Assembly (NCBI RefSeq): GCF_988243305.1
Contig: NZ_OZ547136.1
DNA: 64,000 nt
Strand: one strand, 5' to 3'
Numbering within the stretch: position 1 is the first letter of the stretch; the number at the start of each line of letters is the position of its first letter. The notes beneath the pieces were generated by a model. It was not told where the DNA came from, searched no databases, and was given only the letters and a program-made list of their open reading frames with translations. This document shows positions 1 through 13,282 of the stretch, one piece after another. A program made the translations under genes and the position numbers.

Positions 1-150
1 GCATCACTGCTGCCGTGCGATAACGTCTTTGCCATCGAAAGCCGCTGGTATCGCGATAACCCTCTGGTGATCCGCGGACCAGGCGCAGGGCGCGATGTCA
101 CCGCCGGGGCGATTCAGTCGGATATCAACCGGCTGGCGCAGTTGTTGTAA
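1..150 (+). CDS. metL: Bifunctional aspartokinase II / homoserine dehydrogenase II, 3' end only (partial; start lies upstream of window)
   Basis: Frame 1 reads through to TAA at 148-150, giving a C-terminus ...RDNPLVIRGPGAGRDVTAGAIQSDINRLAQLL that I recognise as MetL; position immediately upstream of metF fits E. coli synteny. Confidence 0.8.
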   Translation, partial: ASLLPCDNVFAIESRWYRDNPLVIRGPGAGRDVTAGAIQSDINRLAQLL

Positions 151-1244
151 TCCTGAGCCAGAGAAAGCAGTATTTGCATAACGCGCCCTGCGGAAAGCGG
201 GGTGCTGTGAGTAAATACTGCTTGTTTATGTAGCCAGTCGATAAAATGTCTGCTGGTTGCTAAAGAGAGCATTTCAGCTTTGCTGATATTTCCGCCCGTT
301 AATGCACATACCATTTTACGATTTTTTCCCTGAACCCAGAGTTGCCACTGATTTTTCCACCAGCCGTGATAAGTTGTTCCCTGAAAACGCCAGGGCATAT
401 TATCGGTATCGTCAGCTATTTCCTCTTCAATAAACCAAATCTCACCTTGCTGTTGGCGAAACAGATCAGCCCATGCCGTAATAATGGCACCTCTTAAAAA
501 ACACTCGTGTGAAATTACATGTGTTTTTACTGTAGGGAAGAGAATATTCAGTACTCTGAAATGCCCGTGTGCAGTGATAACCGGACGCAGAATAACACCT
601 TTAGCATTGCGTTTGAGCGCTGCGCTGCCATACTGAATTTCATCAAACTGACTGCGGCGTAGAAATTGTGCTTCGCGCATATCAACGCGTTGTACAATAT
701 TACTCTCGTGTAACTCTGGTTCTGCATTCCCTCTGTATCGATAATGCAGACTTTCTCCAGCCTGATGCTGCGTGTAATTAGTAGAAAGATGAAGAATATT
801 ACCGCGAAGAGCATCAAAACTGATTAAAACATACAGTTTCTGCCCGCTGCTGACTCCCTGAAATGGCACGAGAAAAGCAACCGTTTCGATTATTTCAGGA
901 GGCGTTATTTCTTTCTGATATTGTTTGGGTGTCCATACTTTTTTGCAGTTACGGCATTGAATGCGTTGCGAACCCTGTGGATTGTGACCATAACAAATCG
1001 TATCTGTACCATAACATACCGGGCAAAAATGGCCTTTCTCTGTTGCAAAAGTAGATAAGTGAACTGACAACCAGTCACGAAATTGTTGCTCGTCAAACAA
1101 CGGCGGGTAACTGCCACATGCCCGACAGTGCAATGCCGGATAACCCAGTCGATAGTCTGGCCAGCTGTAATCTGTCGAAGTTGGCTGCCCTAAATTACGG
1201 CAACCAAACGACTTGCAGGCATTAATCGTAAACAGAGTCGACAT
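114..1244 (-). CDS. Hypothetical cysteine-rich protein with two predicted N-terminal zinc ribbons (Cx4C...CxxC and CxxC...CxxC), possibly transposase-derived; function unknown
   Basis: 376-aa ORF with ATG start (1242-1244) and a GGTGA Shine-Dalgarno-like motif 5-6 nt upstream. Cys pairs at residues 10/15, 40/43, 74/77 and 97/100; the segment CPVCYG...GSQRIQCRNCKKVW resembles IS1595/ISXO2-type transposase zinc ribbons. No other motif recognised in the C-terminal ~260 aa. Not part of the K-12 gene order as I recall it. Confidence 0.7.
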   Translation of the reverse strand: MSTLFTINACKSFGCRNLGQPTSTDYSWPDYRLGYPALHCRACGSYPPLFDEQQFRDWLSVHLSTFATEKGHFCPVCYGTDTICYGHNPQGSQRIQCRNCKKVWTPKQYQKEITPPEIIETVAFLVPFQGVSSGQKLYVLISFDALRGNILHLSTNYTQHQAGESLHYRYRGNAEPELHESNIVQRVDMREAQFLRRSQFDEIQYGSAALKRNAKGVILRPVITAHGHFRVLNILFPTVKTHVISHECFLRGAIITAWADLFRQQQGEIWFIEEEIADDTDNMPWRFQGTTYHGWWKNQWQLWVQGKNRKMVCALTGGNISKAEMLSLATSRHFIDWLHKQAVFTHSTPLSAGRVMQILLSLAQDYNNCASRLISD

Positions 1245-1301
1245 ATATCACCAACGATTTCACAAGGTCGTTGATTTTGTCCGGCAACGCTCCCTTGTGG
1301 A

Positions 1302-1317
1302 TGTGATTGCTCTCACA
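1302..1317. promoter_or_regulatory. Candidate CRP (cAMP receptor protein) binding site, perfect consensus palindrome TGTGA-N6-TCACA
   Basis: tgtgattgctctcaca read directly in the divergent intergenic region; centre ~67 bp upstream of the 1377 ATG. Confidence 0.45.
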
Positions 1318-1376
1318 TAAATAACTCTTTCAGAACGTAATGTAGCAATCCTTTATCTCACTGGAAGGGATTGTTT

Positions 1377-2930
1377 ATGAAAATTAAAATGCTTGCTGCG
1401 GGTATCGCATTAACACTGTCGTTTTGGGCTTGCGCCAAAGATGTCACCATCATTTATACCAACGACCTCCATGCACATGTAGAGCCTTATAAAGTGCCGT
1501 GGATTGCTGACGGTAAACGAGATATTGGCGGCTGGGCAAATATCACTACGCTTGTTAAACAAGAAAAAGCTAAAAACAAAGCGACCTGGTTTTTTGATGC
1601 GGGTGACTATTTTACCGGGCCGTATATCAGCAGCCTGACTAAAGGCAAGGCGATTATCGATATTATGAATACCATGCCGTTCGATGCGGTCACTATAGGT
1701 AATCATGAATTTGATCACGGCTGGGACAACACATTATTACAGTTGAGTCAGGCAAAATTCCCGATTGTGCAGGGCAATGTTTTTTATCAGAACAGCAGTA
1801 AATCATTCTGGGATAAGCCCTATACCATCATTGAAAAAGACGGCGTGAAAATTGGCGTGATTGGTTTGCACGGTGTATTTGCCTTTAATGATACGGTATC
1901 TGCGGCAACGCGAGTGGGTATTGAGGCGCGTGATGAAATTAAATGGCTACAACGTTATATCGATGAACTCAAAGGCAAGGTTGATTTGACCGTTGCGCTG
2001 ATTCACGAAGGTGTTCCGGCCCGCCAGTCCAGTATGGGGGGCACAGATGTGCGCCGCGCACTGGATAAAGATATTCAGACGGCAAGTCAGGTGAAAGGGC
2101 TGGATATTTTGATCACCGGGCATGCACATGTGGGTACGCCGGAACCGATTAAAGTCGGCAATACGCTCATCCTCTCCACTGACAGCGGCGGGATTGATGT
2201 GGGCAAACTGGTTCTCGACTACAAAGAGAAGCCGCATGATTTTACGGTGAAAAACTTCGAGCTTAAAACCATTTACGCCGACGAGTGGAAGCCCGATCCG
2301 CAAACGAAACAGGTGATCGACGGCTGGAATAAAAAGCTTGATGAAGTGGTGCAACAAACGGTCGCGAAATCGCCGGTTGAATTAAAACGTGCCTATGGTG
2401 AATCGGCTTCCCTCGGGAACCTGGCGGCGGACGCTTTACTGGTAGCGGCGGGTAAAAACACCCAATTGGCGTTAACCAACTCTGGCGGTATTCGCAATGA
2501 GATCCCCGCAGGGGCGATTACGATGGGCGGCGTCATCAGTACCTTCCCGTTCCCCAATGAACTGGTGACGATGGAGCTCACAGGTAAACAATTACGCAGT
2601 TTGATGGAACACGGCGCAAGTTTAAGTAATGGCGTTTTACAGGTATCGAAAGGCCTGGAAATGAAGTACGACAGCAGCAAACCGGTTGGTCAGCGGGTAA
2701 TCACACTGACTCTGAATGGCAAACCCATTGAAGATGCGACGATTTACCACATTGCTACTCAGAGTTTCCTTGCTGATGGTGGAGATGGTTTTACCGCCTT
2801 TACCGAAGGGAAAGCGCGTAACACAACGGGCGGTTATTACGTTTATCACGCCGTGGTTGATTACTTCAAAGCGGGCAATACCATTACGGATGAACAGATC
2901 AACGGTATGCGCGTGAAAGATATCAAGTAA
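1377..2930 (+). CDS. Secreted (periplasmic) bifunctional metallophosphoesterase / 5'-nucleotidase-family protein (UshA/CpdB-like)
   Basis: ORF track 1371..2930 begins at TTG; ATG at 1377 with GGAAGGGA 8 nt upstream is the more likely start (~517 aa). N-terminal signal peptide [20 protein letters not shown]. Calcineurin-like phosphoesterase motifs [23 protein letters not shown]; C-terminal region with GNLAADALL and NSGGIR typical of the 5'-nucleotidase C-terminal domain. Confidence 0.85.
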
Positions 2931-2986
2931 AAGTACGTATTGAGTTGATTCATCTGTTTGTTACCAGTTGATTTTGCAGATCCAGT

Positions 2987-3016
2987 ATTCGGCCTACGCG
3001 AGGGCGCAGGCCGAAT
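2987..3016. repeat. GC-rich stem-loop (9-bp stem attcggcct / aggccgaat, 12-nt loop); REP-like or terminator-like
   Basis: Inverted repeat read directly; no clear T-run on either side. Confidence 0.35.
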
Positions 3017-3238
3017 CAGATGCCTTAGCATCACCATCCGGTGGCAGGACGTTGTTTTTCGAATAAGCCCAGGTGTCGCTGTGTTGTCAGAATATCAGTC
3101 AAAACGTGCGAGGTGGATTGCGCTATAGAGAAATCTTTTATCGCCTCTAATTAAGATGAGTTTTTTTCAACTTCCCTGATTTTTCCTCACCATCATTGGT
3201 CATTTTTCGGTTGACGCCCCTCGGCTTTTCCTTCATCT

Positions 3239-3270
3239 TTACATCTGGACGTCTAAATGGATAGATGTTC
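3239..3270 (+). promoter_or_regulatory. MetJ operator (tandem 8-bp met boxes) upstream of metF
   Basis: ggacgtct aaatggat agatgttc matches AGACGTCT-type met boxes; position 40-70 bp upstream of the metF start. Confidence 0.6.
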
Positions 3271-3308
3271 ACAACACAACATATAACTACAAGCGATTGA
3301 TGAGGTAA

Positions 3309-4202
<894 letters not shown>

Positions 4203-4476
4203 ATAGTGTGGCTTTTGTGAAAATCACACAGTGATCACAAATTTTAAACAGAGCACAAAATGCTGCCTCGAAATGAGGGCGGGAAAATAAGGGTGTCAGC
4301 CTTGTTTTCTCCCTCATTACTTGAAGGATATAAAGCTAAAACCCTTTTTTATAAAGCATTTGTCCGAATTCGGACATAATCAAAAAAGCTTAATTACGAT
4401 CAATTTGATCTACATCTCTTTAACCAACAATATGTAAGATCTCAACTATCGCATCCGTGGATTAATTCAATTATAA

Positions 4477-6711
<2,235 letters not shown>

Positions 6712-10472: not shown

Positions 10473-12974
10473 TTACAGTTCCAGTTCATGTTGCAGCAGG
10501 CTGGCGATAGCGTCGGCAGAGGCGGCGTTAACCAGCGCGTTACGGAATTCTTCGTGCATGATGCGGCGAGCGAGGCGCGAGAAAATGCGCATGTGCTGAT
10601 CGCCCGCAGCGTGTTTGTTCAGGGTTAACATAATGATGAATTGCGCTTCATCATCGCCCCAGCGCACCGGCGCTTGCAGACGCGCCACGCTGATGGTGGA
10701 TTGCTCAATGTGTTCTGATTTGCTGTGTGGAATGGCAAAACTAAAGCCCAGACCGGTAGAGAAAACGGCCTCGCGCGCCCATAAGTCGGCTTCCAGTTTA
10801 CGCGGATAGCGGCAGCGGCCCGCCAGCAGCAGGTTATCGGTCATGCCTTTGAGCACTTCTTCTTTGCTGCGCCAGTCACTTTCCAGCGTGATGCACTCGG
10901 CGGTGACCAGCGGTGCGTCCTGTTGGGTCATGCGGAATTGCGCCAGCAGGTGTTCCACTTCCAGCGAAGTACGGCAGGCCATTGCCTGGTTGAGCAACTT
11001 GCGGCACTCACGGCTATCAAGTTGCGCCATCCGAGCTTTCGCCGCCGGAATTGATGGTGCGCTCATGCTGAGTTCATCCAGCCCTAAGCCGACCAGCAAC
11101 GGCAGCACGGAACCTTTCGCTCCCAGCTCACCGCACAGACCAATCCATTTGCCCTGGCGATGCACCGCTTGCACGGCGTAATCGAGCGCCCGCAAGAATG
11201 CCGGATTCAGGCTGTTGTAGTGACGAGTAACCTTAGCGTTATCGCGATCCACTGCCAGCAGATATTGCGTCAGGTCATTACTACCAATACTAAAGAAATC
11301 AATCTCTTCACAGCATTGATCGATGATGAACATCACCGACGGCACTTCCAGCATGATGCCGAGCTGGATCTTCTCATCAAACGGAATGTGTTCGTTACGC
11401 AGTTGCTGTTTGGCTTCCGCCAGTTTTTCTTTCACCCATAAGATCTCTTCCATTGAAGAGATCATCGGGATCATGATTTTCAGGCTGCCGTGAGCGGAGG
11501 CACGGAGAATCGACCGTAGTTGTGTGGTAAATAACGACGCGTACTCTTCATAAATACGCACGGCGCGATAACCGAGGAACGGGTTTGCCTCTGCGGGAAT
11601 GTTCAGATAATCAACGGGTTTGTCACCGCCAATATCCATAGTGCGCACAATAATGCTGCGTCCGTTGGCGGACTCCAGCGCCTGACAAAAAATGTTGTAC
11701 AGCTCGCTTTCGCCCGGTGCACTGGTGCGATCCATATAGAGCATTTCAGTGCGGAATAAACCAACGCCTTCCGCACCATTGCCGAATGCGGCCTGCGCTT
11801 CCACGGAGTGAGCGATGTTAGCGGCAATTTCAATGCGGATACCGTCAGCGGTACGGGCTTGTTGGGTCAGCCAGACACGCTGTTGCTCACGCAGGGCGTC
11901 CTGTACGCGGGCTTCCTGCTGATAATAACGAGCTACGGCTTCCCCTGGCTCAACCACAATCGCCCCAGCGTTTCCGTCGATATAAATCGTTTGATGCTGC
12001 CACGGAGTGAGGGCATCAATATCCACACCAACCAGCGTCGGAATGTTGAACGAACGGGCAAGGATCACCGTATGTGAGGTGGTGCCGCCGCTTTTGAGCA
12101 ACAATCCTTTGAGGTGATTTTTATCCAGTTCGAGGAACTGGCTGGGGGTCAGTTCATCAGCCATACAAATGGCGGGCTGCGTCAGTTTGCCCGGTGCCGG
12201 GAAGCGTTGCTCACCGTAGATTTGCTGGAGTAACTGGAAGCAGACGTCGCGTACGTCCAGGGCGCGTTCTTGCAGGTAGCTGCTGCTGGAACGGGCGAAC
12301 TCTTCGCAGAAGTGGTGTGCACTGGCGACAATCGCTTCGGCACAGCTTAATCCCTCGCTGACGCCTGCCAGTAAGTGCTGACGTAAAGAAGTATCGCCAG
12401 CCAGGGATCGGTGAGCTTCCAGAATCGCGCTGGTGGCACCGTCGCTATCCAGCAGACGAAATTCAATGTTTTTCATCACCAGCGTCAGACCGTTTTCCAG
12501 TGCGGATTGTTCGGCGTCAACGCTTTTGGCAGCAGGAAGATTACCCAGCGCATTGAGATCTAAAGAAGAGATCGGCGTCAGAATGCCGCCTGCGCTACCG
12601 CTGCACACGGTGCGGGCGCGGATAATTTGCGGATTCAGATTGGTCAGTGAAACCGGCAGTGGTTCCAGTTCGTCAGATTTTACTTCCGCCAGCGGTGCGT
12701 CGCAGTGGGGGAATTCATCGCGCAGCCATTGGCTTAAACGCTGGTACGCTTCCTGTTCGTCTGCCCCGGAAATCAGTAACTGGCAGTTATCGCCCACCAG
12801 CGTATCGGTGCCAATCAGCGCAAGGGCGCTTTTGGCGTTGCCCTTGCGGTCAGTGCGCAGGTTATGCCACTCAATTTGTGATGAAAAAGTATTACACAGC
12901 GTTTCAACGTGGCTTGCCGGACGCGCATGTACGCCGTTAGGTAGCTCACAAATAAATTCCACAATCAGGGCCAT
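10473..12974 (-). CDS. ptsA: Multiphosphoryl transfer protein (PTS enzyme I-like with HPr and EIIA domains)
   Basis: 833-aa ORF; PEP-utilising enzyme motifs; synteny. Confidence 0.92.
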
Positions 12975-13282
12975 TGCCTCTCTCCCGGTACGGTTTTCTG
13001 TTTACAGGATAAGAGCGCACGGCAACGGCCTGCCATGTGACAAATCTGCCAAAAGCTGGACAAATGTAATGTAACCGTCAATTTGCGACGCGTCTCACAA
13101 GACGCCGTTTTGCGGCATGCTTCCGGATTATCGCAAGTTATGAGGCGGATCGCATTTTTGTACTGATATTACAAAAGTCCAGTAAATGGCCTTTTTATCC
13201 ACTGTTTGCTCCGCCTGCGATTGCCTATTGTTTCCTCCATCAAAAATATGGACATGGGCTTTTGCAAGCCCGGGAGCAGCTT

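Follow-up and report, generated by a model that had tools for sequence, protein, structure and literature searches.

The spacer between two divergent genes near one end of the DNA analyzed here contains a perfect match to the CRP consensus palindrome, which raises the question of whether cAMP-CRP controls this locus and, if so, through which promoter or promoters. The interpretation favored here, to which a probability of about 75% is attached from comparative sequence analysis, is that cAMP-CRP binds the palindrome with high affinity and that the site functions as a class II switch for a nucleotidase gene and probably for the divergent gene too. The window, which is the whole 64-kb stretch of DNA that was analyzed (64,000 nucleotides), opens in the 3′ end of metL, followed by a minus-strand open reading frame, the 132-bp spacer (1245-1376), the nucleotidase gene, metF (3312), and katG (4492). 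The start codons at 1377 and 1244 are those given in the RefSeq annotation of near-identical Escherichia coli genomes. The two genes and the palindrome are as follows.

114-1244, minus strand: divergent gene for a 376-residue, Cys-rich protein with two N-terminal Zn ribbons and an RNase H-like DDE transposase/integrase fold; candidate domesticated IS1-like transposase
1302-1317, no strand: CRP core site TGTGA-N6-TCACA (22-bp footprint ∼1299-1320, center 1309.5), recognized by its sequence, position weight matrix (PWM) score, and conservation
1377-2930, plus strand: gene for a 517-residue secreted metallophosphatase/5′-nucleotidase with an N-terminal signal peptide (by inspection); presumed regulated gene

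The nucleotidase matches models of the UshA, CpdB, NadN, and YfkN type, in every case below the curated cut-off, and therefore represents a distinct family within the superfamily. Sequence searches with the divergent gene product returned a weak IS1/InsA-type Zn ribbon alone, and residues D144, D201, and E247 are invariant in an alignment of 19 sequences. The gene occurs in one copy and keeps its synteny from genus to genus, features that suggest domestication of an IS1-like DDE transposase. A relic of IS1 terminal repeats upstream of this gene was also considered and rejected; local alignment to both ends of IS1A was no better than that obtained with shuffled sequences, a fraction of 0.4-0.56 of which equalled or exceeded the score found.

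The original prediction regarded the locus as an island and the nucleotidase as acquired, a description that is contradicted by its distribution. The gene pair was found in 1840 of 5426 complete E. coli genomes (34%), being absent from K-12-like strains, ETEC H10407, and O157 Sakai, and it lies in divergent orientation between metL and metF in at least eight genera. A scan of species-representative genomes yielded nucleotidase orthologues of 87-98% identity in Citrobacter, Klebsiella, Kosakonia, Phytobacter, Kluyvera, Superficieibacter, Pseudocitrobacter, Salmonella arizonae, Enterobacter, Pluralibacter, Rahnella, and Silvania, most of which have the divergent pair in the metL-metF interval. 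The GC content of the locus is 42-52%, and although its presence is polymorphic within E. coli, the set of properties that would together mark a horizontally acquired island (restriction to particular strains, foreign composition, mobility genes, and a variable insertion site) was not observed. The metL-metF synteny across genera indicates that the locus is ancestral and variably retained rather than an island specific to E. coli. In B2 strains such as CFT073, the locus is longer, with the transposase-like gene followed by two extra nucleotidase genes and a gene for a Tsx-like channel; this CFT073-type form has been described as GR31 (PMC12928451).

Inspection of the spacer reveals that positions 1302-1317 read TGTGATTGCTCTCACA, in which the inverted pentamers tgtga (1302-1306) and tcaca (1313-1317) are separated by exactly 6 bp (ttgctc, 1307-1312), and that the palindrome arms extend to 6 bp each (ATGTGA, 1301-1306; TCACAT, 1313-1318). 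Measured from the center, the ATG at 1377 is 67.5 bp away and the minus-strand start at 1244 is 65.5 bp away. The original prediction had placed the palindrome at 1302-1317, ∼67 and ∼66 bp from the two starts, and a −10 hexamer, cgtaat, at 1336-1341; on re-reading, all of these coordinates proved correct. This is the single exact occurrence of TGTGA-N6-TCACA in the 64-kb window, for which 0.04 were expected from dinucleotide-preserving shuffles, and one site with a single core mismatch was present elsewhere in the window.

The scoring against a PWM that the original prediction proposed was carried out with a symmetrized matrix derived from 107 16-mers, those that underlie the CRP ChIP-seq peaks of ETEC H10407 (Table 1 of PMC4287617). 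TGTGATTGCTCTCACA scored 15.77 bits, which ranks 19th among the 107 ChIP-seq sites (median for bound sites, 13.06 bits) and thus lies in the score range of sites to which CRP binds in vivo. It was also the best-scoring sequence in the 64-kb window, the runner-up reaching 12.5 bits. Mononucleotide shuffles of 64 kb contained 0.12 sites at or above 15.77 bits, equivalent to ∼2.5 × 10−4 per 132-bp region. In the longer locus of CFT073, a second CRP-like site, TGTTACTAAGATCACA, is present at 5162-5177, ∼105 bp upstream of the second nucleotidase gene, with a score of 14.8 bits. Separately, three CRP-like sites are clustered in the window at 12935, 13084, and 13139 (11.9, 12.5, and 9.9 bits, respectively). 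Judged by its offset from metF, this cluster (12935-13154) occupies the ptsA-frwC intergenic region, and a peak is given for the ptsA-frwC gene pair in the ETEC H10407 CRP ChIP-seq data (PMC4287617).

Conservation of the palindrome was assessed in ∼30 orthologous upstream regions from at least 10 genera, in which TGTGA and TCACA occur at a constant offset, with the left edge 74-75 nucleotides before the ATG of the nucleotidase gene. The genera in which this distance is kept include Escherichia, Citrobacter, Klebsiella, Kosakonia, Phytobacter, and Kluyvera, together with S. arizonae and others. The spacer hexamer of the site, by contrast with its half-sites, took at least 12 different forms in the same set, and column conservation across 23 non-redundant orthologues stood at 1.00 in the left half and 0.91 in the right, against 0.58 in the spacer. 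The half-sites are thus selectively conserved while the spacer is free to vary. Conservation of the 20 bp upstream of the site (1281-1300) was 0.56, among the lowest values in the intergenic region. Four-fold degenerate sites in the adjacent coding sequence showed 38-53% identity between the window and other genera, i.e. they are saturated, and from these values the chance of ten neutral positions all surviving is ∼1 × 10−3 to 5 × 10−5 per lineage. The same pattern was evident within E. coli, where alleles with intergenic identity down to ∼89% varied at three of the six spacer positions and at none of the 10 half-site positions; the flanks carried substitutions also. Strain 2014C-3075 has an intergenic region identical to that of the window.

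S. arizonae carries a truncated divergent gene, with similarity picking up again precisely at the CRP site, and this links the site to the promoter of the nucleotidase gene. In three distant paralogous modules, whose nucleotidase is 71-74% and whose partner 35-38% identical, the spacer measures 133-154 bp and the ATG is preceded at 66-68 bp by a CRP-like site. In a clade comprising Enterobacter, Pluralibacter, Rahnella, and Silvania, in which the module is found at another genomic location, the right half-site is weakened (TCGCA, GCACA, or CCCCA; 5.7-13 bits). Taken together, the invariant half-sites, the fixed distance from the ATG, and the score lend strong comparative support to the cAMP-CRP interpretation of the divergent control region put forward in the original prediction. 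Two individual E. coli genomes also deserve mention. In WP8-S17-ESBL-08, the nucleotidase gene (3163-4716) is annotated as a pseudogene with an internal stop, and the upstream CRP site is intact; strain IH5 gives the only partial intergenic match, which lies amid a patchwork of truncated unrelated gene fragments and looks like an assembly artifact rather than a true variant.

The arrangement of the site relative to putative promoter elements bears on how CRP would act, and involves the following further features of the spacer.

1249-1279, no strand: block ACCAACGATTT...GGTCGTTGATTTTG, strongly conserved and containing the imperfect palindrome CAACGA-N10-TCGTTG, adjoining the start of the minus-strand gene
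1274-1279, minus strand: candidate −10 CAAAAT of the transposase-like gene, 22 nucleotides after the CRP 16-mer and 30.5 bp from its center
1283-1295, no strand: degenerate CytR-like motif GGCAA-N3-TCCCT flanking the CRP site, a weak match in the window (6 of 10 positions of TGCAA-N3-TTGCA)
1326-1340, plus strand: block CTTTCAGAACGTAA between the CRP site and the candidate −10, with a core promoter element or a second regulator as options
1338-1343, plus strand: candidate −10 TAATGT of the nucleotidase promoter, 20 nucleotides after the CRP 16-mer and 28.5 bp from its center
1363-1370, plus strand: Shine-Dalgarno region GGAAGGGA of the nucleotidase gene, identified by sequence, with a conserved TGAAAGGRA block

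A σ70 consensus scan of positions 1000-3400 revealed no consensus-like promoter, as is expected for an activator-dependent promoter. The position at which a −35 element would lie reads ACATAA and is inside or adjoining the CRP site, in keeping with the poor or absent −35, overlapped by the activator, of a class II promoter. To locate −10 elements, every offset from the CRP site was scanned, in a set of 25 orthologues and paralogues, for hexamers that keep A at position 2 and T at position 6. On the plus strand, the best mean match was given by TAAnGT (1338-1343), which retains both key bases in 22 of the 25 sequences; GAACGT, five bases upstream, retains them in 21 with a mean of fewer than two of six consensus matches. 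On the minus strand, a clear peak was found at CAAAAT (1279-1274), with both bases in 21 of 25 sequences and a mean match of 3.68 of 6. The consensus matches of both candidates are low (3 of 6 for TAATGT and 4 of 6 for CAAAAT).

From this geometry, transcription of the nucleotidase gene is predicted to start near 1348-1351, with CRP centered at about −38.5 to −41.5 in a class II position, and that of the transposase-like gene near 1267-1269, with CRP at about −41.5. A CRP position of −61.5 would place the nucleotidase start downstream of the Shine-Dalgarno region, so that about −41.5 is the sole canonical fit. The class II distance suggested in the original prediction is therefore retained, and the hexamer it chose is not. 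That hexamer, cgtaat, lacks A at position 2 and its last T varies among genera (T, C, A, or G); TAATGT, 2 bp away, keeps the key positions and is the better candidate. The further suggestion that the palindrome could serve either or both promoters is possibly correct, given the −10-like hexamers at class II distance on both sides. In the ETEC ChIP-seq study, the commonest position of CRP sites was ∼40.5 bp upstream of transcription start sites (PMC4287617).

Several other explanations of the palindrome were weighed against that of a class II CRP switch. It is improbable that the region is a nucleoprotein switch in which CRP would activate, an adjacent CytR would repress, and cytidine or adenosine would relieve the repression. 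The nucleotidase yields a nucleoside, the genes tsx, nupG, udp, cdd, and deo are under CRP/CytR control (PMC3105977), and a Tsx-like gene belongs to the larger form of the locus, all of which would suit such a switch. The CytR operator consensus is TGCAA-N2-3-TTGCA (PMC3454398), and an exact CytR-type sequence, TGCAA-CTA-TTGCA, is found 7-19 bp to the left of the CRP 16-mer in Phytobacter ursingii, with matches of 9 of 10 in Kosakonia and 8 of 10 in Klebsiella; the half-sites occupy equal positions (−19 and −11) in different genera. In the window, however, the motif is reduced to 6 of 10 (GGCAA-CGC-TCCCT) and lies in the poorly conserved stretch 1281-1300. Moreover, the two CRP sites ∼52-53 bp apart that flank the CytR operator in CRP/CytR promoters were not found, there being no conserved second CRP site ∼52 bp away, and the best second match in the window scored 5.7 bits, 65 bp off and overlapping the start codon of the minus-strand gene. 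More doubtful still is a nucleotidase start further downstream, near 1363, which would leave CRP bound near −52 and the site serving the divergent gene only, or acting as a roadblock or architectural element. CRP at about −52 is regarded as non-activating. What counts here against a plain class II arrangement is a conserved alternative pair of hexamers, −35-like CTTTCA or TTTCAG and −10-like CTTTAT (1351-1356), ∼17-18 bp apart, of which CTTTCAG and CTTTAT are highly conserved; in addition, the CRP site is almost exactly in the middle of the spacer and so could belong to the divergent gene. Both hexamers nevertheless match the consensus at three of six positions, CTTTAT is without the key A at position 2, and the leader would begin inside or just before the Shine-Dalgarno region. 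The retention of the CRP site with the nucleotidase gene in S. arizonae, where the divergent gene is truncated, argues against a role for the divergent gene only.

It is very improbable that the palindrome merely resembles a CRP site and is bound by another protein, for example the Zn-ribbon/transposase-like partner. The partner gene, palindrome, and nucleotidase gene are inherited as a unit, and the partner has putative DNA-binding Zn ribbons, which would be consistent with such binding. The sequence, however, matches the CRP consensus exactly, including the 6-bp spacer specific to CRP, and in the paralogous modules, where the partner has diverged to 35-38% identity, the half-sites stay CRP-like (CGTGA...TCACA and TGTGA...TCACA) and do not covary with the protein. 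The least credible explanation is a functionless chance palindrome. By arithmetic from base composition, approximately four exact TGTGA-N6-TCACA sequences would be expected per 4.6 Mb, but only the 0.04 noted above in a window of this size, and a chance origin is effectively refuted by the invariance of the site where synonymous sites are saturated and its own spacer drifts.

The spacer contains conserved sequence besides the CRP site. Mean conservation over 1326-1346 was 0.90, on a par with that of the CRP half-sites, and conservation of CTTTCAGAACGTAA to this degree goes beyond what a plain class II promoter explains, so that a second regulator may bind here. The left arm of CAACGA-N10-TCGTTG does not vary, and the changes seen in its right arm are uncompensated. 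No similarity to IS1 ends was seen in the 1249-1279 block. Searches for RNA elements were likewise negative, with nothing credible in an Rfam search of 1150-1480 (one snoRNA match, E = 9) and no consensus structure from RNAalifold for the predicted 5′ leader of the plus strand. Inspection of the CAACGA/TCGTTG and CTTTCAG/CTGAAAG arms showed no compensatory changes, with wobbles and mismatches mixed on either strand. By inspection against consensus sequences, there was no convincing match to σE, σ54, PhoB, PurR, or DeoR motifs. For a DeoR operator, a left half matching at six of eight positions was found at TTTCAGAA, and this candidate was discarded with the right half matching at just one of eight.

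It is unlikely that the locus is an ancient module, passed on by vertical descent, that unites the genes of a periplasmic nucleotidase and a domesticated IS1-like DDE transposase around one CRP site, which both would share through back-to-back class II promoters. The transposase-derived protein, with its Zn ribbons and invariant D144, D201, and E247, would then serve a nucleic acid scavenging pathway as either a nuclease or a DNA-binding regulator. In such a module, that protein might act via the CAACGA-N10-TCGTTG and CTTTCAGAACGTAA blocks.

Published work on CRP binding, transcription start sites, or crp- or cya-dependent expression for this locus was sought in any organism, by full-text searches with CFT073-style locus tags and in crp and cya studies of uropathogenic E. 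coli (UPEC) and Klebsiella and ChIP-exo strain comparisons, and none was found. The supplements of a UPEC cAMP study and a Klebsiella crp study, and tables of K. pneumoniae start sites, contained no matches to the locus. The table of CRP ChIP-seq peaks for ETEC H10407 has no peak at the locus, which that strain itself does not carry (PMC4287617).

The preferred class II reading can be expressed as the following minimal model, drawn from the observed site and its score, conservation, and geometry. When glucose is scarce, a CRP dimer would bind at 1302-1317. From there, ∼41.5 bp upstream of a weak promoter that lacks a −35 element (−10 TAATGT), it would recruit RNA polymerase by a class II mechanism, and this recruitment would switch on the secreted 5′-nucleotidase/metallophosphatase gene (1377-2930). 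The same dimer would probably activate the mirror-image class II promoter (−10 CAAAAT, 1279-1274) of the transposase-like gene. One CRP dimer cannot hold polymerases at both class II promoters simultaneously, so dual use would have to alternate. Nucleotides in the periplasm would then be dephosphorylated, and the resulting nucleosides would be imported and burnt via the CRP-controlled regulon (tsx, nupC, nupG, udp, cdd, and deo).

Judged by these comparisons, the locus is a well-supported candidate for a new member of the CRP regulon, and the site is very probably an ordinary catabolite-control switch. Its inclusion would add to that regulon an operon of the accessory genome that is absent from K-12 and present in a third of E. 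coli, with carriers that include the extraintestinal strains CFT073 and BEN2908 as well as Klebsiella, Citrobacter, and Enterobacter, and it would connect carbon starvation to the dephosphorylation of periplasmic nucleotides. The site also offers a clean case in which phylogenetic footprinting can validate a regulator site in genes that are beyond the reach of databases built on model strains. The constant partner gene is unexpected, its product being a protein of transposase fold fixed in synteny across genera.

Comparison with known systems places the locus close to three groups of CRP-regulated genes. In class II CRP-dependent promoters such as galP1 and melR, CRP is centered near −41.5. 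The nucleotidase promoter resembles these in having a single high-scoring CRP site, no recognizable −35 element, a weak candidate −10 ∼29 bp from the center of the site, and a geometry compatible with −41.5; it differs in that it has no extended −10, that the additional conserved block CTTTCAGAACGTAA lies in the promoter spacer, and that its start is predicted. A single CRP site common to divergent promoters was reportedly the subject of a model study by El-Robh and Busby in 2002, and 11 cases of such sharing are listed by Shimada et al. 2011 (PMC3105977). The present locus shares with them one CRP site in a short spacer, nearly equidistant from the two starts (65.5 and 67.5 bp), with −10-like hexamers at class II distance on both sides. 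It departs from them in having a transposase-like gene as one partner, rather than a metabolic gene or regulator, and its CRP dependence is predicted. The 2011 study also lists cpdB, tsx, nupC, nupG, udp, cdd, and deoC as CRP targets (PMC3105977). Compared with these nucleotide and nucleoside scavenging genes of E. coli K-12 (cpdB and, with CytR, tsx, nupC, nupG, udp, cdd, and deoCABD), the locus encodes a nucleotidase of a family apart from UshA, CpdB, and NadN, has no tandem CRP sites, and retains a degenerate CytR motif in the window. It nevertheless has in common with them the CpdB/UshA superfamily to which its product belongs, the physiological theme, and, in its larger form, a Tsx-like channel.
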